Virus record (IMG/VR): IMGVR_UViG_2526164690_000043
Location: 1-13,417 of that record
Strand: one strand, 5' to 3'
From: a virus
Taxonomy: Duplodnaviria > Heunggongvirae > Uroviricota > Caudoviricetes
DNA length: 13,417 nucleotides
Part shown: in pieces, positions 1 to 13,417 of the stretch
Position numbering within the stretch: the first letter of the stretch is position 1
Layout of the letters: each line of letters opens with the position of its first letter
The notes under the pieces: model-generated
Databases searched by the model: none
The model's input: the letters and a program-made list of their open reading frames with translations, nothing else
Told to the model about the DNA's origin: nothing
Made by a program: the position numbers and the translations under genes

Positions 1-1230
1 ATGAGCAGAGCACTTAACAAACTGAGCGATACACAGCTGAGGAAAATCAACGGCACACCCGCCCAAAAAACAGCCTTTCTTAATGACGGTGGAAACCTGA
101 GCGTCAGGCATTCAACCAGCGGCCTTTTAACCTGGTATTTCACCTACAGGGCCGGAACGGGAAGGGGAGCACGACCGGAACGGATTAAGCTGGGAAATTA
201 TCCTGATCTGAGTCTGAAAGCTGCCAGGGAAAAAGCGGCACAGTGTCGCGCTTGGCTTGCTGAGGGGAAAAATCCACGTCATGAGATGAATTACACCGTA
301 CAGAAAGCGTTAAAGCCCGTAACGGTTGGCGATGCGCTTACCTACTGGCTTGAGTCTTACGTAAAGGAAAACCGCGTGGATTATGCCGCCCTGAAAAAGC
401 GCCTTAATAATCACGTAATACAGCACATTGGTGCTATGCCGCTGGATAAATGCGAGCTACGGCACTGGCTGGCCTGTTTTGACCAGGTGGCAAAGCGAAC
501 GCCTGTTACTGCCGGATTCTTGCTACAGACGTGCAAACAGGCGCTTAAGTTCTGCCGGAGGCGGCGCTATGCAATCAGCAACGTTCTTGATGATATGAGT
601 GTGGCGGACGTTGGGAAAAAACCGGATATAAGCGAGCGTGTCTTAAGCACCAAAGAACTTGGCGAATTATTGCAGGCACTGGACAAAAAAATATTTTCCC
701 CTTACTACGTCGCACTAATCCGCCTCCTGATTGTTTTTGGATGCCGGACGGTAGAACTGAGGTTATCGGAGATCAGCGAGTGGGATTTTACCGAAATGCT
801 CTGGACCGTGCCGAAAGAACACAGCAAAACGAAGGTGGCAATATTCCGGCCCATACCGGAAGCAATACTGCCGTTCGTCACGCAGCTGGTGGAGCAGAAC
901 AGGCACACGGGCTTATTGCTGGGGGAAGTGAAACAGGAAACAAGCGTGTCGCAGTACGGCAGATTAGCGCACAGGAGGCTAAAACACCCTCACTGGTCAC
1001 TGCATGACATCCGGCGCACCTTTACAACGATGCTGAACGATTTAGGCGTGGATCCTCACGTCGTGGAGCAGCTTACAGGTCATCAGATGCCAGGGATGCA
1101 ACGAGTCTATAACCATTCCCGTTATCTGGATGCGAAACGTGACGCGCTGGATATGTGGACGGAGCGGTTAGGGATACTGGCGGGAACACATGAAAACGTA
1201 ACCACATTGCCAATAGCCAGAGAAATATAA
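1..1230 (+). CDS. int: Tyrosine integrase, P4-like (N-terminal arm-binding DUF4102-type domain plus C-terminal catalytic domain)
   Basis: 409-aa ORF. The N-terminus (LSDTQLRK..DGGNLSVRHSTSGLLTWYFTYR..LGNYPDLSLKAAREKA) fits the P4-integrase arm-binding signature. Catalytic landmarks are GCRTVELRL (Arg), LHDIRRT (His-x-x-Arg) and VYNHSRY (Tyr). Confidence 0.95.
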   Translation: MSRALNKLSDTQLRKINGTPAQKTAFLNDGGNLSVRHSTSGLLTWYFTYRAGTGRGARPERIKLGNYPDLSLKAAREKAAQCRAWLAEGKNPRHEMNYTVQKALKPVTVGDALTYWLESYVKENRVDYAALKKRLNNHVIQHIGAMPLDKCELRHWLACFDQVAKRTPVTAGFLLQTCKQALKFCRRRRYAISNVLDDMSVADVGKKPDISERVLSTKELGELLQALDKKIFSPYYVALIRLLIVFGCRTVELRLSEISEWDFTEMLWTVPKEHSKTKVAIFRPIPEAILPFVTQLVEQNRHTGLLLGEVKQETSVSQYGRLAHRRLKHPHWSLHDIRRTFTTMLNDLGVDPHVVEQLTGHQMPGMQRVYNHSRYLDAKRDALDMWTERLGILAGTHENVTTLPIAREI

Positions 1231-1251
1231 TTTTTTTGCGATTTTTCAGGA

Positions 1252-1313
1252 TGCGGACAACGTGAAACAACGAGACACAACGACGAACAACAAGGAACAA
1301 AATGGAACAACGG
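1252..1313 (+). repeat. Array A: six tandem 10-bp units, each ending in (G)AACAAC (helically phased boxes)
   Basis: ACAAC at 1257-1261, 1267-1271, 1277-1281, 1287-1291 and 1307-1311, plus ACAAA at 1297-1301. The register is exactly 10 bp and the array begins about 20 bp after the int stop. Confidence 0.8.
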
Positions 1314-1512
1314 GTTAAAAATCAGCCATCGTAATAACCATTTGATTTTTATAGGTGTACTGTTTTTTTATACACTGGCGAATCACTCTTAAAAATATGT
1401 AAAAAAGGCGTAAAAGTAAAATTTTATGCCTTTGCATCATAATGAATTAAAAGAGTTTTTATTCTCATTCCCCCTGCTTCTGTAAAACGACCGCCGCCAG
1501 TGTTTGCCATTC

Positions 1513-1566
1513 CACAAACACCCTGACACAATCCGACACAACCCAACCCAATAATCCACCCAATGA
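1513..1566 (+). promoter_or_regulatory. CA-rich tract with 10-bp-spaced GACACAA(C) boxes just upstream of alpA (degenerate relative of array A)
   Basis: GACACAA at 1525-1531 and GACACAAC at 1535-1542, preceded by ACAAACA at 1514-1520 and followed by CCCAA repeats. It lies 30-80 bp upstream of the alpA start. Function unknown. Confidence 0.4.
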
Positions 1567-1594
1567 CTCTTTAAGAAACAACAAAGGGGGAATT

Positions 1595-1783
1595 GTGTTA
1601 AGCACAGATCGCTTTATACGTGAAAAAGAATGTCAGCAACTTACAGGCCTGAGCCGCTCATGTCGGTACCGCCTGGAAAAAGCCGGACAATTCCCATCAC
1701 GGCGTAAGCTGGGCGGTCGTTCCGTTGGCTGGTCTTTATCCGAAGTTCTGGCATGGAAGGACAGCTGCGAGGCAGTTCACTAA
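1595..1783 (+). CDS. alpA: AlpA-family (Vis/excisionase-like, HTH_17) phage regulatory protein
   Basis: 62-aa ORF with a GTG start preceded by AAAGGGGG. RFIREKECQQLTGLSRSCRYRLEKAGQFPSRRKLGGRSVGWSLSEVLAWK matches the AlpA pattern (TGLSrst.Y.l...G.FP.p.kLG.rsv.W...Ev..W). Confidence 0.9.
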   Translation: MLSTDRFIREKECQQLTGLSRSCRYRLEKAGQFPSRRKLGGRSVGWSLSEVLAWKDSCEAVH

Positions 1784-1835
1784 TCAGGCTGGCGGCACAC
1801 AGCCGCCACCCATCCACTAATACAGAGATCTAACC

Positions 1836-2738
1836 ATGAATACTGGATATTCTCCCGAACAAGGGCGGGGCTTCGTTCGTCCTGAAAAACAGAATCTGCA
1901 AAATTTTGCCGAAATTATTCCGGTTATTTCCGGCCTTACTGGCGGGAGTGAAACCAATATTGTTAACGCCAGAGCGTTGCAGATGTTTGATGATAAAAAG
2001 GGAGTAAATTTAACTTACACCCCTGACGGCAATCAGAATATGAGCATTATCTCTGAGTCAGGTTTCTACAAACTAATAAAAACAAAAAGCGCCCCGTTGC
2101 CGGAGCGCCTTTGTGAACAATTAACCTACTGCGCAAAAAATGAATCTGAGCAGTGGGATTATATCAACCATGTGGAGAAGCGCCACAATTGCCGAATAAC
2201 GGGCAAAACAAAGGCCACCCGCTACGGTGGCCCCTCGACACAAGCTACACGTTATCCCCAACGCATGAGCATTGCCAACAATGCCACATTTGCGGCTGGT
2301 GGGCAATGCAATCAGTCTGGTTCAGTTCGTTGCCATACCTGCAATGAGCGCTTTTCCCTGTACTCTTTAAGGAATTGCTCAAGGGCAAAAGCACATGGCG
2401 CGAATCTTTCTGATTCATGCTCTATCTTTCTGCGCCGTCTTTTCCGTGCCGGTGATAATGTTTTGGTCAATTCTTTATCGGTCATTGTGTTGTCCTGCAT
2501 AGCAATGCGCCGTAGTTACTCACACCACGGCGCTGGTGATGGTTACTCCTGCTCTTTGGCCTTGCGACGCTGGCGGCGTTTGATCTCACCTTTAACGGCA
2601 GTAACTATAAATTGCGCCTTGCTTTCACCTTCATCTAAATTTTTTCTAAGTCTGCAACAACATCATGCGGGAATCTGGCATTTAACTGTTGCGACTTATT
2701 ATTTGTTGAACCTGTTGCCATTACTGAATCCTCTCTAA
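1836..2738 (+). CDS. Hypothetical protein. Only the first ~100 codons look coding and the 3' ~600 nt of the ORF is probably an artefactual extension.
   Basis: The N-terminal part contains NMSIISESGFYKLIKTKSAP, reminiscent of the end of a Bro-N/antirepressor-type domain (weak). From ~2150 onward the translation is Cys/Ser/Arg/Leu-rich, as expected for an antisense frame. That part overlaps two better-supported minus-strand genes and their terminator. One extra A in the A6 run at 2135-2140 would give a stop (..CAKK*) at ~2144. Confidence 0.35.
   Translation: MNTGYSPEQGRGFVRPEKQNLQNFAEIIPVISGLTGGSETNIVNARALQMFDDKKGVNLTYTPDGNQNMSIISESGFYKLIKTKSAPLPERLCEQLTYCAKNESEQWDYINHVEKRHNCRITGKTKATRYGGPSTQATRYPQRMSIANNATFAAGGQCNQSGSVRCHTCNERFSLYSLRNCSRAKAHGANLSDSCSIFLRRLFRAGDNVLVNSLSVIVLSCIAMRRSYSHHGAGDGYSCSLALRRWRRLISPLTAVTINCALLSPSSKFFLSLQQHHAGIWHLTVATYYLLNLLPLLNPL
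2204..2232 (-). terminator. Rho-independent terminator of the minus-strand two-gene unit
   Basis: The minus strand reads GGCCACC-GTAGCG-GGTGGCC followed by TTTGTTTTG: a 7-bp GC-rich stem (2213-2219/2226-2232), a 6-nt loop and a T-tract. On the + strand no T-tract follows. Confidence 0.65.
2312..2485 (-). CDS. Small, highly basic hypothetical protein (57 aa from the second ATG)
   Basis: MTDKELTKTLSPARKRRRRKIEHESERF.. with AGGA 7 nt upstream of the ATG at 2485. It lies 57 nt downstream of the RHH gene on the same strand. The 3' end is uncertain, because a frame change near 2318 would extend it to a stop at 2245, just before the terminator. Confidence 0.45.
   Translation of the reverse strand: MTDKELTKTLSPARKRRRRKIEHESERFAPCAFALEQFLKEYREKRSLQVWQRTEPD
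2543..2721 (-). CDS. Ribbon-helix-helix (Arc/CopG/MetJ-like) DNA-binding protein, split by a 1-nt frameshift as given
   Basis: ATG at 2721 with AGAGGA 7 nt upstream. It reads MATGSTNNKSQQLNARFPHDVVADLEKI* (stop 2635-2637). The -1 frame continues LDEGESKAQFIVTAVKGEIKRRQRRKAKEQE* (stop 2543-2545). Joined, these give a typical ~59-aa RHH (beta strand QLNARFP, then two helices). The junction is the A6 run on the coding strand (T6 at 2640-2645). Confidence 0.65.
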
Positions 2739-4365: not shown

Positions 4366-4665
4366 ATGAAACTTAAATATTCTGGCTTAACTGCCAGTGG
4401 CAACACTCACCCTAAATTTACGCGCGGCGATATTTACCGCGACCAGTACGGCGGCACGGTAATGATTAAGGGCGTGGCGGGACGGTGCGTAACCTACCGC
4501 CGTGAAGGTTACGAATATGATTGCGTGATGCCTGTTTATCAGTTCCGGCGTGATTTTTCTCTGGTACAGACCGCGCCGCATAACGTGCCCACCAGCAACG
4601 CCAGGGCACGGGCAAACATCCAGAAGCTGAAAACCATGATTAACGGATTCAGGGGCAAGAAATGA
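4366..4665 (+). CDS. Hypothetical protein, possibly DUF4222-like
   Basis: GDIYRDQYGGTVMIKGVAGRCVTYRREGYEYDCVMPVYQFRRDFSLV resembles the small beta-rich DUF4222 pattern seen in enterobacterial prophages. This rests on memory only. Confidence 0.45.
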   Translation: MKLKYSGLTASGNTHPKFTRGDIYRDQYGGTVMIKGVAGRCVTYRREGYEYDCVMPVYQFRRDFSLVQTAPHNVPTSNARARANIQKLKTMINGFRGKK

Positions 4666-6059
4666 AAAGCGCACCGAACTTAAAAAAACAGCCTTACGAC
4701 AAGATGACCGAAGTCATTATTTTTGCGGGTAGTGATGCCTGGGCACATGCGAAACAGTGGCAGGAACAGGACGGGCGACTGGCTGGCGATAATGTGCCTC
4801 CCGTTGTGCTGGCTGATGATCAACTGGATGAACTGGCAGACCTGAGAATCATCGACGAGGGGCGCTATTGTGTCCGGCTGTACAAGGCAGGCCACATCAG
4901 GCCATCAAATATTAATGCCATTGCGCACAAGCTGGCAGCGGCAGGTGTACAGGATGCGAATTACTACCCCGATGGGATGCACAGCCAGAAGCGGGAGAAC
5001 TGGCGCGAATATCTGGAACGGGAGCGCGGGGAAAAGCAGGAAGAAAAAGGCCACCAGCGCAAAACAAAGCTACCGATGAGCGTTGGTTCTGCCGGATATG
5101 ACACGCAACTGGATTACGTGGTTAAGGGGATTATTCCGGCGGTATCGCTTTGCAGCATATACGGGGCGAGCGGTTCCTATAAATCGTTCCTTGCGGGTTC
5201 GTGGGCGTGTCACGTTTCCACGGGCCGCCAGTGGGGAGGCCGCAGGGTGGCGCATGGCGCTGTTCTCTATGTGGTTGGTGAAGGCGGTATCGGCGTTCCG
5301 CGTCGTGTAAAAGCCTGGGAGGTTGTGCACGGTGAGCAGGTGAAAAATCTTTACCTTGTAAACCGTCCCATCTTTCCGGCTGCCCCGCTTGATGTTGATG
5401 AAATGGTTATCGCTGCCCGTCAGGTGGAGCGGGAAACGGGTAAACCTGTTCGAATGATTATTCTGGATACGCTGGCGCGCTGCTTTGGCGGCAATGATGA
5501 AAATGACTCCCGTGATATGGGGACGTTTATCCGTGGGTGTGACGAACTGAAACGACGCACAGGGGCCACGGTGCTGGTGGTTCACCATTCCGGCAAGGAT
5601 GAGACGAAAGGCGCGCGCGGTTCCAGTGCATTTCGTGCTTCGCTGGATGCTGAATACCGGATACGCAGGGAGGACGCAGGAAGCGAAGCGCTGGTTATCT
5701 CATGCACCAAAATGAAGGACGCGGAGGAACTCAAAGAAGCCGCATATGACTTACGCGTGGTGGAGCTTTTTACCGACGCTGACGGGGAGTTAATCACGTC
5801 GCTGGTGGTGGTGGATAAGCCGCGCCCTCCCGTTGAACTGGAGCGCATCGAGGAGGCAGGGAACAAGACGGAGAATCACGCCGCGCTATGGCAGTGCATC
5901 AGAACACGAACAGCACACGGGGAGGCGTGCACTATCGCCCTTCTCCGCGACGATATGAAAAAGCTGGGGTATGAGATGAAGCACTTCCGGCGCTGGCTGT
6001 ACAAGCTGGAAAATGATGGCGTAATCGTTATTGACGGTGATGACGTGCGCCCGCTGTAA
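4662..6059 (+). CDS. Replication initiator/helicase, RepA-like RecA-fold ATPase (AAA_25 type) with a C-terminal winged-helix-like tail
   Basis: 465 aa. Walker A is YGASGSYKS and Walker B is VRMIILDTLARC. VLVVHHSGKDETKGARGSSA is typical of RepA/DnaB-like AAA_25 proteins. ATGA-coupled to the upstream ORF, and the iteron array begins at its stop codon. Confidence 0.85.
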   Translation: MKSAPNLKKQPYDKMTEVIIFAGSDAWAHAKQWQEQDGRLAGDNVPPVVLADDQLDELADLRIIDEGRYCVRLYKAGHIRPSNINAIAHKLAAAGVQDANYYPDGMHSQKRENWREYLERERGEKQEEKGHQRKTKLPMSVGSAGYDTQLDYVVKGIIPAVSLCSIYGASGSYKSFLAGSWACHVSTGRQWGGRRVAHGAVLYVVGEGGIGVPRRVKAWEVVHGEQVKNLYLVNRPIFPAAPLDVDEMVIAARQVERETGKPVRMIILDTLARCFGGNDENDSRDMGTFIRGCDELKRRTGATVLVVHHSGKDETKGARGSSAFRASLDAEYRIRREDAGSEALVISCTKMKDAEELKEAAYDLRVVELFTDADGELITSLVVVDKPRPPVELERIEEAGNKTENHAALWQCIRTRTAHGEACTIALLRDDMKKLGYEMKHFRRWLYKLENDGVIVIDGDDVRPL

Positions 6060-6260
6060 AAAGTGGGGAGTAAAAGTGGGGAGAGTGGGGAATTTAACAA
6101 AATTGAAACATAATTACCCACTTTCCCACCTGTATATACCCAAAAAAGTGGGGAGTAAAAAATATATTGAAAAACATCACGTTAGAATCACAAAAAGAAG
6201 AGGTGGGGAGACGGTGGGTAATTTCAAAAAGTGGGGAGCAAAAGTGGGGAGTAGTGGGGA
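6059..6260. repeat. Iteron-type origin of replication (ori)
   Basis: Nine direct copies of RGTGGG(G/T)A start at 6062, 6075, 6084, 6147, 6202, 6213, 6230, 6243 and 6253. Two inverted copies lie at 6115-6122 and 6124-6130. A triple-iteron block (6059-6095) is repeated at 6227-6263. These flank AT-rich segments at 6092-6116 and 6155-6200. Confidence 0.8.
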
Positions 6261-6512
6261 ATGAACAGAAAAACCAGAGATAAGACAGCGCCAAAATATA
6301 AAGCGTTAGACATGACAGAGCTTTCCCTAAAGGTGGCAATCAGAACGATAGACCGACACGTAGGGGAAGGATACGCGAAGGAACATCCCGACCTGATAAG
6401 CGCATTCATGACCACAGCAGCGGCAAACTTTGCCACGCTGACAGAACGGGAGATTGCCGAAGCGGAACAGGTAACAACCATCAACGTTAAAACCGGAGAG
6501 GTGGAATCATGA
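6261..6512 (+). CDS. Hypothetical protein (83 aa; alternative start at 6312)
   Basis: The ATG follows the last iteron directly, and GGGGA could act as the SD. The gene is coupled (ATGA) to the next ORF. No family recognised. Confidence 0.5.
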   Translation: MNRKTRDKTAPKYKALDMTELSLKVAIRTIDRHVGEGYAKEHPDLISAFMTTAAANFATLTEREIAEAEQVTTINVKTGEVES

Positions 6513-6814
6513 GCGAACCAAAATTTGGTGAAAAACTTTACAAGCACAACGGACGGATCACGATTCAGCAAATAAGCGCAGCTACACCAGGCTGGTGGGT
6601 TGAAACAGACGAAGGATCATCACCCGTGGCATCATGGGCGCTTTGTGTGCTTAGTTACCCTGACCGCGATGTGTATCAGGATATTCTGCCTGTGATATCC
6701 ACTGACAAAGGCATGAAACCCGTAGACATCAAAAACATGGGTTTTCAGTGCGTAATGCTCACTGAAAAAATGATGGAAGAGATGAAAAAGAACAACGCCG
6801 GATCGCTTCACTGA
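6509..6814 (+). CDS. Hypothetical protein (101 aa)
   Basis: ATGA overlap with the upstream ORF and a plausible globular composition. No family recognised. Confidence 0.55.
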   Translation: MSEPKFGEKLYKHNGRITIQQISAATPGWWVETDEGSSPVASWALCVLSYPDRDVYQDILPVISTDKGMKPVDIKNMGFQCVMLTEKMMEEMKKNNAGSLH

Positions 6815-7519: not shown

Positions 7520-7525
7520 TCACAC

Positions 7526-7549
7526 AGCCGGAGAAATCCGGCTTTTTTT
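7526..7549 (+). terminator. Rho-independent terminator T1
   Basis: AGCCGGA-GAAA-TCCGGCT followed by a T-run through 7549, starting 7 nt after the perC-like stop. Confidence 0.8.
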
Positions 7550-7644
7550 GCACCAGTTGAAACGGTATGGCGCATTACCGGGTTTTCGTCACGGTCTGGC
7601 ATAGTTACTATCTGAAACAAACAGACACAACAGAGGAAAAAACA

Positions 7645-7986
7645 ATGCCGATGAAATTTGATGAGATATTAAAACAGCGTGATAAATACCATGCTGACAA
7701 CATGGAGACGATGAGCATCAATGATTACCGCGCATTCCTGGAGACGGGCGCACTGATTGAAAAGGATCAGCATGGTTTTGTGAGATGTGCTCTATCCGGT
7801 GAAATGCTGGCGGTAAATCCTGAACAGATAGATGCATTGATAGAATTTCTGAAAGGGATCAGGACTGAGCACGCATACAGCCGGAGCAATCCGGTCTTTT
7901 TGTCATTTTTTGTAAATTATTTGTTCGTGGTTGTTCCACGTTGTTCACTGACAGGATCGGCATATTTTACCCGAACTGAATCATGA
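7645..7986 (+). CDS. Hypothetical protein; 3' end doubtful because the ORF reads through a terminator-like hairpin
   Basis: ATG at 7645 preceded by AGAGGA. MPMKFDEILKQRDKYHADNMETMSINDYRAFLETGALIEKDQHGFVRCALSGEMLAVNPEQIDALIEFLKG looks coding. The tail (..FLSFFVNYLFVVVPRCSL..) crosses hairpin T2 and repeat array B. One extra G in the G3 run at 7855-7857 would end the protein as ..FLKGDQD* just before T2. Confidence 0.45.
   Translation: MPMKFDEILKQRDKYHADNMETMSINDYRAFLETGALIEKDQHGFVRCALSGEMLAVNPEQIDALIEFLKGIRTEHAYSRSNPVFLSFFVNYLFVVVPRCSLTGSAYFTRTES
7879..7901 (+). terminator. Terminator-like hairpin T2, a near-copy of T1
   Basis: CAGCCGGAGCAATCCGGTCTTTTTG compared with T1 CAGCCGGAGAAATCCGGCTTTTTTTG. 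The stem is shorter (GCCGGA/TCCGGT with a G-U pair) and is followed by CTTTTTGTCATTTTTTG. Confidence 0.5.
7917..7950 (-). repeat. Array B: three 10-bp-phased GAACAA(C) boxes, inverted relative to array A
   Basis: On the + strand, TTGTTC sits at 7921-7926, 7931-7936 and 7941-7946. The minus strand reads GTGAACAACGTGGAACAACCACGAACAAATAA, the same unit and register as 1252-1313. Confidence 0.75.
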
Positions 7987-8022
7987 GTATTCTCGCCCGT
8001 GGTGCCAGGACGCTGGGGCCAC

Positions 8023-8070
8023 TTTCCCGCCTGTTAATGTGCTCGCCAATATTCATTACCAGGCGGGAAA
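8023..8070 (+). promoter_or_regulatory. Perfect 11-bp inverted repeat in the leader of the head operon
   Basis: TTTCCCGCCTG (8023-8033) and CAGGCGGGAAA (8060-8070) are separated by 26 nt. No T-tract follows on either strand, so this is an RNA stem-loop or a protein-binding palindrome rather than a terminator. Confidence 0.55.
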
Positions 8071-8123
8071 ACGATCGGTGCGATTGCTGATTTCCTTATG
8101 AAAAACGGTTGAGTGTTTGCCGC

Positions 8124-8160
8124 GTCCTGGAGTTCCTTACTTAACCCCAGGACTTTTTTT
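8124..8160 (+). terminator. Intrinsic terminator-like hairpin abutting the capsid start codon
   Basis: GTCCTGG (8124-8130) pairs with CCAGGAC (8147-8153), and 8132-8134/8143-8145 can extend the stem. T7 (8154-8160) follows, then ATG at 8161. The only SD-like element for the capsid gene (AGGA, 8149-8152) lies in the 3' arm of the stem. Confidence 0.65.
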
Positions 8161-9318
8161 ATGCCGAGAATAATCGAATTACGCCAGCAGAAAACCGCCA
8201 TTAAAAATCAGATGCGCGACATGCTGGAGAACGCGGAAAAAGAAAACCGCAGTCTTAACGATGCTGAGGGCGCAAAATTTGACGAATTACGCGCTAAAGC
8301 TGAATCCCTCGATAAAGACATTTCCCGCCTTGAAGCCATTGCAGACGAAGAGCGCAGCAAGCCAGGTAAAAGCAGTCAGACCACTGACCCCGCAGAACTA
8401 CGCAACTACATTCTGACAGGTGAAACCCGCGCATTAAGTACAGGCGTTCCCGCTGATGGTGGTTATACCGTTATCCCTGAACTGAACACCGAAATCATGC
8501 GAATGCTGGCGGATGAATCCACCATGCGCCGCATCTGTACCGTGAAGAAAATCAGCAGCAACGAGTTTAAGCAGCTTGTTTCCGCTGGCGGTGCGACCGT
8601 TAACCACGGTGAAGAGGGTAAGGCACGCGAACAGACCAGCCCCCCGCAGATTAACGAGGTGAGCATTAAGCTGTATCCGGTCTATGCGTACCCGCGCACC
8701 ACACAGGAAATCGTGGATTTTTCCGATGTGGACATCCTTTCATGGCTGACGGGTGAGATTGGCGACACCTTCACGGAAACCGAAGAAAGCGATCTGGTTG
8801 TGGGCGACGGTGACAAAAAAGCAAAAGGTTTTTTATCCGTACCCCGTGCAGAGAAGAACGACAAAGAGCGTGATTTTGGTACGTTGCAGGTAATTAAACC
8901 TTCCGAATCTCTGGCGTGGACATCTGCGGACCCGCTGATCGACCTGAAATTTGCATTACGTAAAAATAACCGCAAAAACGCGGTCTGGGTGGTTAACTCC
9001 ACGACGGCGGCAAAACTTCAGAAGGTGAAGAACGCGAACGGTGATTATATCTGGCGCGACCGTTTACAGGCGGGTGATCCTGATACGTTGCTGGGCCTTC
9101 CGGTCGAATATCTGGAGTTTATGCCTGATAACGTTATTGCCCTGGGTGACTTCAAACGCGGTTACTACATTGTTGATCACGAAACAGGTGTTCGCACCAG
9201 ACCGGACAACCTCACAGAGCCGGGCTTCATCAAAATTTTCACGCAGAAATATTTAGGCGGTGGCGTGGTGGATTCGAACGCGATCAAGATTCTGGAACTG
9301 CCACAGGACGACGATTAA
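8161..9318 (+). CDS. Major capsid protein, HK97 fold/family, with an N-terminal coiled-coil delta (scaffolding) domain
   Basis: 385 aa from the ATG at 8161 (the track ORF starts at GTG 8113, inside the leader). The N-terminus IELRQQKTAIKNQMRDMLENAEKENRSLNDAEGAKFDELRAKAESLDKDISRLEAIADEER is typical of HK97-family delta domains. The body carries family-like stretches such as GGYTVIPELNTEIMRML and ..NAVWVVNSTTAAKLQKVKNANGDYIWRD..LLGLPVEY. Confidence 0.92.
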   Translation: MPRIIELRQQKTAIKNQMRDMLENAEKENRSLNDAEGAKFDELRAKAESLDKDISRLEAIADEERSKPGKSSQTTDPAELRNYILTGETRALSTGVPADGGYTVIPELNTEIMRMLADESTMRRICTVKKISSNEFKQLVSAGGATVNHGEEGKAREQTSPPQINEVSIKLYPVYAYPRTTQEIVDFSDVDILSWLTGEIGDTFTETEESDLVVGDGDKKAKGFLSVPRAEKNDKERDFGTLQVIKPSESLAWTSADPLIDLKFALRKNNRKNAVWVVNSTTAAKLQKVKNANGDYIWRDRLQAGDPDTLLGLPVEYLEFMPDNVIALGDFKRGYYIVDHETGVRTRPDNLTEPGFIKIFTQKYLGGGVVDSNAIKILELPQDDD

Positions 9319-9328
9319 CAGCATACAG

Positions 9329-9348
9329 AAGGGGCTTAAAAGCCCCTT
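9329..9348 (+). other. Stem-loop between the capsid and protease genes
   Basis: AAGGGGCT-TAAA-AGCCCCTT, followed by TAGTGTTTTAT (a weak T-tract). It may act as a partial terminator or mRNA-stabilising hairpin that raises capsid output relative to downstream genes. Confidence 0.5.
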
Positions 9349-9380
9349 TAGTGTTTTATGGGTGAAAAATTATGAAGAGT

Positions 9381-9930
9381 ATGGAAATCCGGTCATACGG
9401 AAATCACCACCAGCGCCAGCAACACGCTGACAGGCTACGTTGTTCGCTGGGATAAGCTTTCAGAGCTGCTATGGGGGGAGTTTTACGAAAAATTCCAGCG
9501 GGGAGCGTTTACTGAATGGCTTGCGGCGGGTAATGACGTTCGCGGCCTGTATGAGCATGACCACAGCATGTTGCTGGGGCGTACCCGTTCCGGCACGCTG
9601 AAACTGGAAGAGGACGAAACAGGGTTACGCTTTGAACTGACCCCACCGGATACCAGCACAGGGCGGGACGTTATCGAACTGGTTAAACGTGGTGATATAT
9701 CCGGCATGAGCTTTGGCTTTCGTTCCCGTAAGGATGTATGGGATACCACAACAGATCCATGCGTGCGCACCGTGCTGGTTGCGGAACTGTACGAAATTAC
9801 CGTCACATCCGTACCGGCTTACCCTGATTCCGGCGTGGAGCTGGCCCGCCGCTCCCTGTACGAGCAGCACCCCGAAAAAATGCCGCGTGCGGATAATCGC
9901 CGCTGGTGGGCGGATTTAGCGGGGGTGTGA
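9381..9930 (+). CDS. Prohead (capsid maturation) serine protease, HK97 gp4 family, frameshifted near codon 7 as given
   Basis: ATG 9381 gives MEIRSYG, then runs out of frame to a stop at 9450-9452. The frame opening at 9400 reads EITTSASNTLTGYVVRWDKLSELLWGEFYEKFQRGAFTEWLAAGNDVRGLYEHDHSMLLGRTRSGTLKLEEDETGLRFEL..RGDISGMSFGF.., which carries the family His (EHDH) and Ser (GMSFGF) motifs. The track ORF 9568-9930 covers only the distal part. The junction is at GG 9399-9400. Confidence 0.85.
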
Positions 9931-9931
9931 T

Positions 9932-11146
9932 ATGTGGCCTTTTCAGAAGAAAAAAAAGAGCAGCGCTAGCATGACGCTTGATGAGTTTATGGCGCTGGCT
10001 GGCACATCGAACACGGGGGCGGGTGAGTACGTATCATCGGGGACAGCGGAATCACTGCCCGCCGTCATGAACGCCGTCACGGTCATCTCTGAGGCGGTGG
10101 CTACCATGCCGTGTTACCTGTACCTGGTACGCAATGAGAAGGGGAAGGAGGCCCGAGAGTGGCTTGATTCTCATCCGGTCGATCACATCCTCAACGAGCG
10201 CCCGAACGCATGGCAAACCCCCTACCAGTTTAAGCGAATGATGATCCGCCACTGCCTGTTAAACGGTAATGCTTATGCGGTGATTCAGTGGGGGCGTGAT
10301 GGTTTTCCGGTGGCTTTACATCCTTACCCGCCGCAGTCGGTGAACGTTGAGCAGACAGGTGAGCATAACTGGCGCTACTGCATCACTGACGCCTACACCG
10401 GAAACACCCGCAACTATTTACCGTGGGAGGTTCTCCACCTTCGTTACTCCACGGATGACGGTTTTATGGGGCGCTCACCTGTAACCATCTGCCGCGAATC
10501 GCTGGGGCTTGGGCTGGCCCAACAACGCCACGGCGCGAGCGTGATGCGTGATGGCATGATGGCGGCAGGGGTTATCACGTCAGGCGAATGGCTGGACGGC
10601 GTGAAGGGCAAACAGGCATTAGCCGCACTGGAACGCTACAAAGGGGCCAGAAACGCCGGAAAAACGCCCATCCTTGAAGGGGGTATGAGCTATCAGCAGC
10701 TGGGCATGAGTAATCAGGATGCTGAATGGCTGGCCTCCCGTCGCTTCACCATTGAAGACATCGCCCGAATGTTCAACGTCTCGCCGATTTTTCTGCAGGA
10801 ATACAGCAACAGCACCTATAGCAATTTCAGCGAGGCAAGCCGCGCATTTCTCACCATGACGATGCGCCCGTGGCTGGCGAACTTTGAGCAGCAGATAAAA
10901 AACGCCCTGCTGGTGGCCTCGCCTGTACCTGGTATCCGGTATCAGGTGGAGTTTGTACAGCGCGGACCTGTTACGGGCCACACCTGGCGAACGCTTTGCC
11001 ACCTATGAACGCGGCATCAAATCCGGCGTTATGTGCCCGAACGAAGCCCGCGAACGTGAAGGGCTGTCCCGCGTGATGGTGGTGATGAGTTCAGCCAGGC
11101 ATGGAAACAGGAAGTAAAAATCAGCGAGGGAGAAAAACCGGAATGA
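9932..11146 (+). CDS. Portal protein, HK97 family, with two compensating frameshifts in the 3' end as given
   Basis: ORF 9932-11008 (358 aa) has portal-like content (..HPVDHILNERPNAWQTPYQFKRMMIRHCLLNGNAYAVI.., ..FTIEDIARMFNVSPIFLQEY..). The conserved C-terminus is readable only by moving to another frame from ~10953 (LYSADLLRATPGERFATYERGIKSGVMCPNEAREREGLS) and back at ~11070 (..DGGDEFSQAWKQEVKISEGEKPE*, stop 11144-11146). That stop overlaps the next gene's ATG in an ATGA. Confidence 0.88.
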
Positions 11147-11481
11147 ACATAGGGCGACTGCGTGACAGGGTAACGATTCAGACCCTGAAACAGACCAGGG
11201 ATATAACCGGCGAAATACTCGAAACGTGGGTGGACGGTCACACACTCTGGGCAAGCGTGAACATGATCAGCAGCAAGGAGGCCATTTCATCGGGTGCAGA
11301 ACTGGCGACTGGAACGGTAAGGATATGGATACGCTACAGGAAGGACATCAACGCCACCAGCCGGATAAAGGTCAATACGGGGCCGCTGGCGGGGCGTGTA
11401 CTGAATATCATCGGGCAACCGCTGCCGGATGCCGCCAGGACACGCCTTGAAATTCTTTGTCGTGAGGGCGCGGAAAAATGA
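11143..11481 (+). CDS. Head-closure / head-tail joining protein (Phage_H_T_join, SPP1 gp16-like)
   Basis: MNIGRLRDRVTIQ...ETWVDGHTLWASVNMISSKEAISSG...VRIWIRYRKDINATSRIKV...LEILCRE matches the family pattern (L..RV.I......W......WA.v...s..E........i.IRYR.di....RI.....l.l.C.E). The track start at 11101 is replaced by ATG 11143, which is ATGA-coupled to the portal gene. Confidence 0.85.
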   Translation: MNIGRLRDRVTIQTLKQTRDITGEILETWVDGHTLWASVNMISSKEAISSGAELATGTVRIWIRYRKDINATSRIKVNTGPLAGRVLNIIGQPLPDAARTRLEILCREGAEK

Positions 11482-11774
11482 CAGAAGAACTTATCACCCT
11501 GGAAGAAGTGAAACTCCATTGCCGCATCGATGGCGACGAGGAAGACCAGTTAATCAGCGGATACATTGCCGCATCGCTTGAGGCGTGCCAGATACATATA
11601 GGCAGGCGCTTTGATGACGGGCTGGAGTTCACGCCGGCCATAAAGATTGGCTGCATGATGTTTATCGCTCACCTGTACGAGAATCGCCAGCTGGTAGCGG
11701 ATAACGCAAAAACACGCGTACCCATGACGATAGGCGCACTCTGGACGGCTTACCGTGATGTGGGGGTGTACTGA
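11478..11774 (+). CDS. gp6-like head-tail connector (adaptor) protein (Phage_connect_1)
   Basis: LITLEEVKLHCRIDGDEEDQLISGYIAASLEACQIHIGRRF....IAHLYENRQ matches the gp6-like signature (l.evK.hlRid.d.eD.li..li.aA......y.gr......lva.lYenR). ATGA-coupled upstream. Confidence 0.85.
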   Translation: MTEELITLEEVKLHCRIDGDEEDQLISGYIAASLEACQIHIGRRFDDGLEFTPAIKIGCMMFIAHLYENRQLVADNAKTRVPMTIGALWTAYRDVGVY

Positions 11775-12213
11775 TGCCGTGGCAACCATTAAGACGATGT
11801 ACAGAACCAGGCTGTAACAGGCGCGTTAAGTCCGGCAAGTGTGAGGAGCACAGGCGGGCGGCATGGCGTGCAGAGGATGCCAGACGAGGACACCGCCGCG
11901 CGCGTGGGTACTCCAGACAGTGGGAAAAATACCGCGCCATGTATCTGAGTAAAACCCGTTATGCGTGCGATGCCTTGAGAAGGGGATATATACGCCCGCC
12001 GTGGTGGTGGATCACATTATCCCGATTAATGGCGGTGATGATGTTCTCTTCTGGCCCGAATGGAACCATCAGCCATTGTGCCAGGCGTGTCATAACCAGA
12101 AAACGAAGTGGCTTGATCCGGCAACAAAAAGCAAGCGTGCCGCAGGTGGATTTCGTGAAGAGGAAGAACGGGCCGCTAACCGCAATAACTGGATGTATGA
12201 CGCTGATGAATGA
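11774..12213 (+). CDS. HNH endonuclease (HK97 gp74-like packaging accessory nuclease), frameshifted as given
   Basis: The N-terminal part (11774 onward) reads MPWQPLRRCTEPGCNRRVKSGKCEEHRR...RGYSRQWEKYRAMYLSK. The core, in the -1 frame (open from 11953; track ORF 11965-12213), reads NPLCVRCLEKGIYTPAVVVDHIIPINGGDDVLFWPEWNHQPLCQACHNQKT (H-N-H motif). The junction is the A4 run at 11951-11954, and A5 would fuse the two as ..YLSKNPLCVRC... Confidence 0.85.
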
Positions 12214-12379
12214 GCGGGAACAAAACCGCCTTATCCGTGGACTTATAAGGCAGCGTGACGCATGGAAGACACAGGAAACAGGGCATAAAGATAAAGCGTC
12301 AGGACGCGCAGAACGCATCACAGCGAAGCGATTAACCGACCGTGACCGCGAGGTTATGGAATGTTTCCGCAATCGCTGA
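12197..12379 (+). CDS. Possible small charged protein (57-60 aa) between HNH and the cos/terS region
   Basis: This is the distal part of track ORF 11774-12379, which becomes an independent ORF once the HNH frame is corrected. ATGs at 12197 and 12206 overlap the HNH stop. It reads NEREQNRLIRGLIRQRDAWKTQETGHKDKASGRAERITAKRLTDRDREVMECFRNR. No family recognised. Confidence 0.35.
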   Translation: MTLMNEREQNRLIRGLIRQRDAWKTQETGHKDKASGRAERITAKRLTDRDREVMECFRNR

Positions 12380-12501
12380 TGAGGCTGTATGACGGGGTGG
12401 GGGGCGTTTTCAGGACAAACCCGACCCCGCCGGGCACCGAACGCCTCCTCAAATTTTTATGCACGGGAATTTTTTGAAAAATAATCTGGCGAAAAATAAG
12501 C
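12380..12501. other. Candidate cos / terminase recognition region
   Basis: This is the only sizeable non-coding gap in the packaging module, and it lies just upstream of terS, as in HNH-dependent HK97-like cos phages. A G-rich block ACGGGGTGGGGGGCG (12392-12406) faces a C-rich block CCCGACCCCGCCGGG (12420-12434). Phased A/T tracts follow (AAATTTTTAT, AATTTTTTGAAAAATAAT; 12451-12485). Confidence 0.45.
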
Positions 12502-12858
12502 ATGGCAAGACCACCGAAAGCCCCCGCCTACCTGAATGACATCGCCGTGAAGCAGTGGCGGGAAAAATCGCGGCAGCTTGCGGAACGGGGAGACCTTACC
12601 CCCGCCGACTGGAGTAATCTGGAACTGTATTGCGTCAATTACTCGATATACCGGAAAGCCGTCGCAGACCTTGCGGCGCGCGGGTTCAGCATTGTTAACA
12701 GTCAGGGTGGCGAGAGCAGAAACCCCGCATTAAGCGCAAAATCCGACGCTGAAAGAGTGATGATAAAAATGGCCTCCTTGCTCGGTTTTGACCCGATAAG
12801 CCGCCGTAAAAATCCACCGGAAACAGAAGAAGAGGACGAGCTTGACCGCCTGGAATAA
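12502..12858 (+). CDS. terS: Terminase small subunit, P27 family
   Basis: PKAPAYLNDIAVKQWREKSRQLAERGDLTPADWSNLELYCVNYSIYRKAVADLAARGFSIVNSQGGESRNPALSAKSDAERVMIKMASLLGFDPISRRK follows the P27-family TerS pattern (P..L...a...W..l...l...g.l...D...l..yc......r.a...l...G.......g....nPa........l......efGltP.sR.k). Confidence 0.9.
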   Translation: MARPPKAPAYLNDIAVKQWREKSRQLAERGDLTPADWSNLELYCVNYSIYRKAVADLAARGFSIVNSQGGESRNPALSAKSDAERVMIKMASLLGFDPISRRKNPPETEEEDELDRLE

Positions 12859-13417
12859 GTACGCAGAAGACGTAAAAACGGGCAAAATTCCGGCCTGTAA
12901 ACGGCTGAAACAGGCCGTTAAACGGTACTTTTCGGACCTTGAAAGCCCCCTTTACACGTTCGATCGTGAGGTTGTGGAGCGGTTTATTGCCTTTTCCAGG
13001 GTGTGCCCGCACGTAAAAGGGCCGATGCGTGGCAGACCCATTGAGCTGGAGCCGTGGCAGCAGTTCGCCTTTGCGTGCATCCTCGGCTTTAAGGTTAAGG
13101 CCACCGGACGGCGCAAATACACGAGCGCCTTTATCGAAGTGCCGCGCAAAAATGCGAAATCCACGACCGCCGCGATTCTGGCTAACTGGTTTCTGATTAT
13201 GGAGAACGGTCAGCAGGATATCTACACCGCAGCGGTGAGCCGTGACCAGGCGCGGATCGTCTTTGATGATGCGCGTCAGATGTGCCTTTTATCCCGACCG
13301 TTACGCAGGCGGGTGAATATTCAGGCGCATAAGGTGATACACCCGAAAAGCAACAGCCTGTTAAAGCCGCTGGCAGCAAAAGCGGCAACCATCGAGGGAA
13401 CAAACCCCAGCCTTTCC
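12842..13417 (+). CDS. terL: Terminase large subunit (Terminase_1-like ATPase domain), 5' partial, running off the window
   Basis: The frame is open from 12800 to the window end and is absent from the track because it has no stop. The likely TTG start at 12842 has GAGGA 5 nt upstream and overlaps the terS end. It reads TAWNKYAEDVKTGKIPACKRLKQAVKRYFSDL..HVKGPMRGRPIELEPWQQFAFACILGF..IEVPRKNAKSTTAA (Walker A-like PRKNxKS)..IYTAAVSRDQARIVFDDA. Confidence 0.9.
   Translation, partial: MTAWNKYAEDVKTGKIPACKRLKQAVKRYFSDLESPLYTFDREVVERFIAFSRVCPHVKGPMRGRPIELEPWQQFAFACILGFKVKATGRRKYTSAFIEVPRKNAKSTTAAILANWFLIMENGQQDIYTAAVSRDQARIVFDDARQMCLLSRPLRRRVNIQAHKVIHPKSNSLLKPLAAKAATIEGTNPSLS

Follow-up and report, generated by a model that had tools for sequence, protein, structure and literature searches.

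The DNA analysed here, referred to below as the window, is the whole 13,417-nt stretch of IMG/VR virus record IMGVR_UViG_2526164690_000043. It represents an Escherichia coli capsid-forming phage-inducible chromosomal island (cf-PICI), 99.9% identical to an island that adjoins roxA/pepT in E. coli O103 RM8385, and our subject is the repeat-filled gap directly behind its replication gene, rep, as a candidate replication origin. The gene content is that of a PICI, with an integrase, unidirectional early genes and rep but no lysis or tail genes. The early genes comprise the integrase (1-1230), small regulators, a DUF4222 gene (4366-4665), rep (4662-6059), two small open reading frames (ORFs), and genes for a single-stranded DNA-binding protein (SSB) and PerC, while the late genes encode an HK97-type capsid, protease, portal, head closure, connector, HNH and terminase proteins, a packaging module of the cf-PICI type. 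The features of the rep-ori segment are as follows, with the evidence for each in brackets.

4662..6059, + strand: rep, encoding a 465-aa RepA-family (AAA_25, RecA-fold) helicase-initiator (Pfam; phrog_2850; 94% identity to the Rep of EcCIO42)
5859..6056, + strand: region encoding the predicted C-terminal winged helix of Rep, about residues 400-465 (AlphaFold2 (AF2) model; Foldseek)
5982..5984, + strand: His441 codon CAC (covaries with iteron base 4; immediately before helix 442-451)
6058..6091, + strand: left block of three direct iterons, cores at 6063, 6076 and 6085, beginning inside the rep stop codon (position and number the same in relatives)
6092..6114, no strand: AT-rich spacer A, candidate melting segment (25-mer at 6092, dG -24.8)
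6115..6129, - strand: inverted iteron pair, reading GTGGGTA and GTGGGAA on this strand (19 mapped relatives have one or two such copies at the same offset from the rep stop)
6131..6138, no strand: conserved motif TGTATATA, distinct from the iterons (YRTATAYA; 59 of the 80 loci have it)
6143..6156, + strand: central single direct iteron, core 6148-6154 (85 and 83 nt from the first iteron of each outer block; kept in relatives)
6157..6199, no strand: AT-rich spacer B (79% AT), candidate DNA-unwinding element (25-mer at 6154, dG -24.9)
6200..6222, + strand: direct iteron pair, GTGGGGA at 6203 and GTGGGTA at 6214 (repeat scan; relatives)
6226..6260, + strand: right block of three direct iterons, cores at 6231, 6244 and 6254 (the penultimate copy supplies the likely Shine-Dalgarno (SD) sequence GGAG, 6248-6251)
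6261..6512, + strand: downstream ORF of 83 aa, phrog_1231, no assigned function, preceding ssb (right boundary of the swapped rep-ori cassette)

A repeat array between rep and the next gene

The 201-nt gap from the rep stop codon TAA (6057-6059) to the next ATG (6261) is packed with repeats that share a GTGGG core. A sequence-only reading of the window had described the array as running from the stop codon to the ATG, and this is what we found: the A-tract of the first iteron overlaps the stop codon, and the last iteron (6254-6260) touches the ATG. Nine direct copies of the core (6063, 6076, 6085, 6148, 6203, 6214, 6231, 6244 and 6254) are joined by two inverted ones (6115-6121, GTGGGTA, and 6123-6129, GTGGGAA). 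These are the numbers that the same reading gave for the longer motif RGTGGG(G/T)A, and they stand for the GTGGG core, but with A as its sixth base the second inverted copy does not fit the motif as written. The iteron cores are 7 bp long and spaced 9-17 bp apart.

Eleven cores in 207 bp compare with 0.31 expected from the 20 cores in the other 13.2 kb (Poisson P(≥11) = 5e-14). The degenerate form GTGGGKA occurs 13 times in the 13.4-kb window, as opposed to 2.7 ± 1.5 times in shuffled sequences, none of 200 shuffles reaching 13; ten of the 13 copies lie within 6063-6260 and the remaining three are isolated matches elsewhere in the window. A chance origin of the array is excluded by these counts.

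The outer triple blocks had been called nearly identical, and they are 80% identical without gaps (6058-6102 versus 6226-6270), the iteron parts alone being one substitution and a 1-nt indel apart. The DNA between them is AT-rich and easily melted, as also proposed: AT content reaches 69% in 6092-6142 and 79% in 6157-6199 against 49% for the whole window, and the 25-mers at 6092 and 6154 rank third and fourth in the whole window for low stability, with a free energy (dG) of about -24.8 that lies more than three standard deviations below the window mean (-34.6, standard deviation 3.1). In its layout the array thus resembles a PICI origin, with a position immediately 3' of the initiator gene (the first iteron overlapping the rep stop), iterons around AT-rich DNA (three copies to the left, five to the right and one central) and iterons in both orientations, the inverted copies also being kept in relatives.

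Scans for other signals returned little. No DnaA box with one mismatch or fewer was found in the array, the only look-alikes having two mismatches and being identical with the GTGGGTA iterons themselves, so that nothing points to a dependence on DnaA, and no site matching the consensus of integration host factor (IHF) was found there either. A Rfam scan of the window found no RNA family. Between 5800 and 6500, neither a sigma-70-like promoter nor a terminator was found on the plus strand, so that a common transcript of rep and the downstream genes probably runs through the array. Mechanically called ORFs that cover the array (6031-6264 on the plus strand, 6094-6339 and 6224-6571 on the minus strand) were judged spurious, and none is annotated in RefSeq.

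The sequence-only reading had also suggested that the last iteron could serve as SD sequence of ORF 6261 and so couple initiator occupancy to downstream translation. We do not retain this suggestion. The last iteron leaves zero spacer to the ATG, and the best anti-SD pairing upstream of the ORF is formed by the penultimate iteron (6244-6252, -8.0 kcal/mol), whose GGAG ends 9 nt before the ATG. Where an island has another rep-ori cassette, the same ORF is preceded by an ordinary SD that is not part of an iteron, and occupancy of the duplex by Rep would have no direct effect on the access of ribosomes to the mRNA.

The rep-ori cassette in related islands

Fillol-Salom et al. 2018 (PMC6092414) place the origin of Gram-negative PICIs directly 3' of the initiator gene, and they found that a rep-ori segment of the E. 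coli island EcCICFT073 maintains a plasmid only with rep and ori both intact. EcCICFT073 has the same attachment region as the window and an identical integrase, and its origin likewise lies between rep and the ORF before ssb, with short iterons of both orientations around AT-rich DNA. It can be aligned to the window across DUF4222 and ~365 nt at the start of rep, up to window position 5027, and again from 6333 onwards, with no sequence similarity in between. Unlike the window Rep, the EcCICFT073 initiator is a 584-aa "DNA primase family protein" with only the first ~122 residues in common, and the repeats in its gap, at the syntenic position, are iterons of a different sequence, GGTAGAYA.

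Other islands repeat this pattern. Those with a DUF927 initiator (L006, L008) or a primase-family initiator (L007) each carry their own repeat family in the gap, and share the upstream DUF4222 gene with the window; the downstream ORF and ssb are kept in L006 and L007, while L008 has only an ssb fragment. Homology with islands of other initiators breaks at 5027 and resumes at 6260-6333. Since the flanks are shared and the initiator bodies and repeats differ, we conclude that the Rep body and the array are exchanged as one cassette, which travels between islands whose flanks are otherwise shared. The packaging genes do not go with it: in one island (L005) the rep-ori is the same but the capsid and terminase genes are of another set, and L006 combines the same capsid type with a different rep-ori and different repeats. 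In these sequence comparisons the array follows Rep, not the packaging genes.

Rep residues 1-122 (window 4662-5027), together with the upstream DUF4222 gene, are 75-87% identical at the nucleotide level to islands of otherwise unrelated initiators, namely DUF927 and "DNA primase family" proteins. Judged from sequence, a common N-terminal module thus seems to have been fused to three different initiator bodies; this module models with fair confidence as an alpha/beta domain.

The closest published counterpart is EcCIO42, a PICI of E. coli 042 (PMC6092414). Its Rep is 94% identical to the window Rep, and its rep is likewise separated from the shared downstream ORF by a 200-nt array, in which left block, inverted copy, TGTATA motif, central copy and right block follow one another as in the window. 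Its iterons are however built from GTGAGG instead of GTGGGG, and its Rep has N instead of H at residue 441, so that the two origins, as read from their sequences, probably differ in specificity. The EcCIO42 island also has a different packaging and morphogenesis module.

To place the array in a broader context, we collected 80 loci with Rep homologues from one-genome-per-species contigs, including Xenorhabdus, Kosakonia, Pantoea, Pectobacterium, Serratia, Morganella and others. The layout is kept across E. coli, Xenorhabdus, Kosakonia, Pantoea, Pectobacterium and Morganella. In each of 19 mapped relatives the rep stop is followed by two to three direct copies and a spacer, then by one to two inverted copies (about +47 to +69) and a TGTATATA-like motif; a single direct copy comes ~29 nt past the inverted one and, beyond a ~55-nt spacer, a last group of four or five direct copies. 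The motif YRTATAYA (TGTATATA) was found in 59 of the 80 loci, nearly always 60-79 nt past the rep stop (background 0.48 per kb), and it is unchanged whatever the iteron type; it may be a melting nucleus or a host-factor site. Another motif, CCATTACTGG, recurs in the second spacer (spacer B) of many RepA-type origins (L034, L080, L084, L041, L089), lies at 7190-7205 of L092, and also appears in origins of primase-family initiators (EcCICFT073; about position 2850 of L007). It is absent from the spacer of this window.

In E. coli, most of the rep-ori segment turned up in 567 of 5426 complete genomes. Genomes with any rep-ori match have a median of two and up to 12 matching places (four in RM8385), so that several related islands co-reside, a situation that would favour divergence of origin specificity. 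The same DNA had no match in a phage collection and matched two records in a plasmid collection, of which the 1.4-Mb one looks like a mis-assigned chromosome.

Rep residue 441 and the fourth iteron base

Rep has a sole Pfam match, AAA_25 (E=7.8e-43), a full-length match to phrog_2850, and the RefSeq name "helicase RepA family protein". The nearest solved relative of its motor domain is RepA of plasmid RSF1010 (1G8Y), a weak match. The AF2 model of the full-length protein was poor (predicted local distance difference test, pLDDT, 62), and Foldseek searches with it gave meaningless or generic RecA-fold matches only. Residues 392-465 were re-modelled alone after this poor result, and gave a model of pLDDT 87 with the topology helix-helix-helix-hairpin (H-H-H-strand-strand). 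Its Foldseek neighbours are winged helix-turn-helix domains of DtxR/IdeR, LexA, PcaR and histone H1 and the winged-helix (WH) domain of MCM, at template modelling (TM) scores of about 0.6-0.67, with probabilities up to 0.99 and weak E-values (0.04 or higher); weak E-values are usual for domains of 70 residues. The C-terminus of Rep is thus confidently modelled as a winged helix. In this model, H441 lies directly before the third helix (442-451), the usual position of a recognition helix.

Residue 441 is the variable position X of a C-terminal Rep motif, K-X-[FLM]-x-R-W, and it tracks the fourth base of the iteron (GTGNG). We scored 77 loci, of which 68 were callable (at least four repeat copies) and nine, with fewer copies, were not called. 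Base 4 was A in all loci with X=N (25/25), G in all with X=H (11/11) and X=K (25/25), and C in all with X=S (7/7), while three Enterobacter loci with X=G have (G/A)TGCG repeats, i.e., C at base 4 like the S type. Four further predictions were set before looking at the DNA, and all held: P0007 (H) has eight GTGGG versus one GTGAG, P0014 (N) nine GTGAG versus no GTGGG, P0042 (N) ten GTGAG versus no GTGGG, and P0057 (N) four GTGAG versus two GTGGG. No exception to the match of residue and base was found among the 68 loci, the four prospective tests and EcCIO42.

Switches of type occur between otherwise very similar proteins. The last 40 Rep residues of P0007 and P0014 differ only by V/M and H/N, the helicase cores of the window (H, G) and of O157 F6667 (N, A) are 98% identical, and those of H-type and S-type elements of Kosakonia and Kluyvera are 94-95% identical. 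In alignments of the window origin with both N-type E. coli origins, position 4 changes from G to A in 8 of 11 copies, the other columns being 23-38% different. The H-type origin Ec042T5 has position 4 changed in 0 of 11 copies and none of 30 core columns different, while its columns outside position 4 have diverged by 23%. A coordinated change of many copies that is always matched to the protein is what a binding site of the initiator predicts, and the iteron differences between initiator classes, together with the tracking of base 4 by residue 441, are consistent with iterons matched to their cognate initiator. The proposal that the winged-helix tail of the 465-aa RepA-like protein recognises the repeats, made from the letters of the window, is thereby strengthened by the covariation and the structural model.

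It is an evenly balanced proposition, in our view, that origin specificity in RepA-type satellite initiators is set largely by residue 441, at the start of the recognition helix, reading a single iteron base (H/K for G, N for A, S/G for C). If so, natural H/N switches such as those between the window and EcCIO42 or between P0007 and P0014 would make mutually orthogonal replicons, related islands could co-reside in one cell without cross-activation, and the rule could be used for designing orthogonal origins. We found no prior description of the residue-441/base-4 rule in the literature searched, and a search for the repeat sequence together with "iteron" gave nothing relevant. Separately, one locus of Xenorhabdus beddingii (L010) has a second origin-like array, starting directly after its GTGAGG origin at about 225-290 nt past the rep stop and consisting of GTGGGG/ATGGGG repeats followed by an inverted copy; the specificity predicted for it differs from that of the first array.

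The array as a probable replication origin

We consider it very probable that the array (6058-6260) is the vegetative replication origin of the PICI, recognised by the initiator-helicase encoded immediately upstream. This reading draws on the synteny with the experimentally tested rep-ori of EcCICFT073, on the 94% identity of Rep to that of EcCIO42, whose island has the same array, on the conservation of array architecture across Enterobacterales, and on the covariation of one iteron base with one Rep residue located in the modelled winged helix. The array and its non-randomness, the unstable spacers, the conserved architecture, the inheritance as a cassette, the winged-helix prediction and the residue-base covariation were all computed here, and the synteny, the match to EcCIO42, the architecture and the covariation lend weight to the initial suggestion, in the sequence-only reading, of an iteron origin belonging to the satellite itself.

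For the binding of Rep, the melting and the self-loading we reason by analogy with EcCICFT073 and with the Staphylococcus aureus pathogenicity islands (SaPIs); the use of host factors is likewise inferred. Upon induction, Rep would be made as a RecA-fold RepA-family helicase with a C-terminal winged helix. Its winged helices would bind the 7-bp iterons, H441 reading the fourth base of GTGGGGA, and Rep oligomers would form on the groups of iterons that flank the AT-rich spacers. The duplex would then open at the AT-rich and TGTATATA segments, and the helicase would load itself onto the opened DNA, with the island SSB and the host primase and polymerase completing initiation.

Several points weigh against this interpretation. 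The origin tested by plasmid maintenance, that of EcCICFT073, has an initiator of another class than the RepA-helicase type. Residue 441 is encoded within about 300 bp of the iterons, and the association of the two could partly reflect co-inheritance of the cassette instead of independent co-evolution; with this physical linkage, independent events are fewer than loci, and nine of the 77 loci had too few repeat copies to call. At the protein level, the full-length model of Rep is poor and does not give the geometry of an oligomer, and the Foldseek E-values for the small C-terminal domain are weak. The array has no good DnaA box or IHF site, so that host-factor requirements are not fixed by its sequence.

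We weighed three other functions for the array. The repeats might be Rep-binding sites for control only, acting through titration or handcuffing, incompatibility or a block of read-through, with unwinding beginning elsewhere. The covariation would fit this too, as it shows a match between Rep and the repeats and not the start of synthesis at the array, and both the overlap with the translation start region of the next ORF and the frequent presence of several related islands per E. coli genome could be taken the same way. However, the window has no second iteron cluster, only the three isolated matches, the array encloses two of its least stable segments in a layout that matches the tested origins of EcCICFT073 and the SaPIs, and in iteron replicons the same sites normally serve control and initiation; a role restricted to control is therefore improbable. 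Even less probable is a role as operator or promoter for the operon that follows (ORF 6261, ssb, perC), with a transcription factor, but not Rep, bound to it. The array does lie directly upstream of the ORF, and its repeats overlap the ribosome-binding region, but the scan of 5800-6500 gave no sigma-70-like promoter or terminator on the plus strand, the repeats change along with the type of Rep, and with one residue of it, against a constant set of regulators and downstream genes, and islands with other initiators carry other repeats before the same ORF.

The third function, a packaging site (cos or pac) for the island terminase, has the least to recommend it and is highly improbable, although cf-PICIs use a terminase of their own to package their DNA, and the island must contain such a site (10.1101/2022.09.08.507074). 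Over 6 kb separate the array from the terminase genes, and the exchange of modules argues against a packaging role, L005 having an identical rep-ori with a different terminase and capsid and L006 the same capsid type with different repeats. The cf-PICI papers searched do not discuss the origin.

Compared with characterized replicons, the origin proposed here shares its logic with those of the SaPIs, in which six to twelve penta- or hexanucleotide iterons in both orientations follow directly after rep around an AT-rich centre (PMC9371898 and work cited there). The SaPI Rep reads these 5-6-nt iterons with a C-terminal winged helix, its helicase loads itself, and two hexamers are thought to load (PMC9371898). 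What the window Rep-ori would have in common with them is this functional logic and not membership of a protein family: SaPI Reps are AAA+ superfamily-3/MCM-like proteins, whereas the window Rep lacks the AAA+ superfamily-3 ATPase core and has a RecA fold (AAA_25), like RSF1010 RepA. A RecA-fold Rep is expected to translocate with a polarity opposite to that of SaPI Reps.

Iteron plasmids such as pPS10, F, R6K and RK2 have iterons of 17-22 bp, and their dedicated initiators, of Rep_3 type with tandem winged helices or RepC, recruit a separate helicase, usually with DnaA boxes. The window shares with these plasmids and with RSF1010 the direct repeats, here presumed initiator sites, beside an AT-rich candidate unwinding element, but its cores are 7 bp and the helicase itself carries the putative, modelled DNA-binding domain. 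No Rep_3 or similar Pfam domain is present in the window, which sets it apart from classical iteron plasmids, and neither is a homologue of RepB or RepC, which in the IncQ plasmid RSF1010 act as primase and iteron-binding initiator separate from the RepA helicase. Another comparison is offered by the alpha protein of satellite phage P4, which combines helicase and origin binding in one protein, with a C-terminal DNA-binding domain acting on short repeats. P4 differs from the window in having a primase domain, a superfamily-3 helicase and repeats split between ori and a distant crr, as opposed to a Rep without recognisable primase domain and a single compact array. P4 alpha is mentioned in the description of the Gram-negative PICIs (PMC6092414).

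By sequence comparison, the proposed origin is of a known kind, a new member and specificity variant close to that of EcCIO42 and positionally equivalent to the tested EcCICFT073 origin. The current picture of PICI replication is unchanged by it; if correct, the finding would locate the cis-acting replication site of a cf-PICI found in many pathogenic E. coli. The sole point that goes beyond the literature searched is the exception-free rule linking residue 441 and base 4, a lead on replicon specificity and not a new kind of system, which provides a cheap handle on the specificity and compatibility of co-resident satellites.

Outside the rep-ori segment, the island is a mosaic. Its left, integrase/regulator arm (window 1-2592) is 99.8% identical to the left arm of the classical PICI EcCICFT073, while the right arm (7521-13417), which carries the HK97-type capsid, protease, portal and terminase genes, shows no DNA-level relationship to the right arm of that island. 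Within the early region, an ORF of 300 aa on the plus strand (1836-2738) has weak matches to anti-repressor (Ant) PHROGs; it is unannotated in RefSeq, which instead places two small minus-strand genes at this position, one of them of the YlcI/YnfO family.

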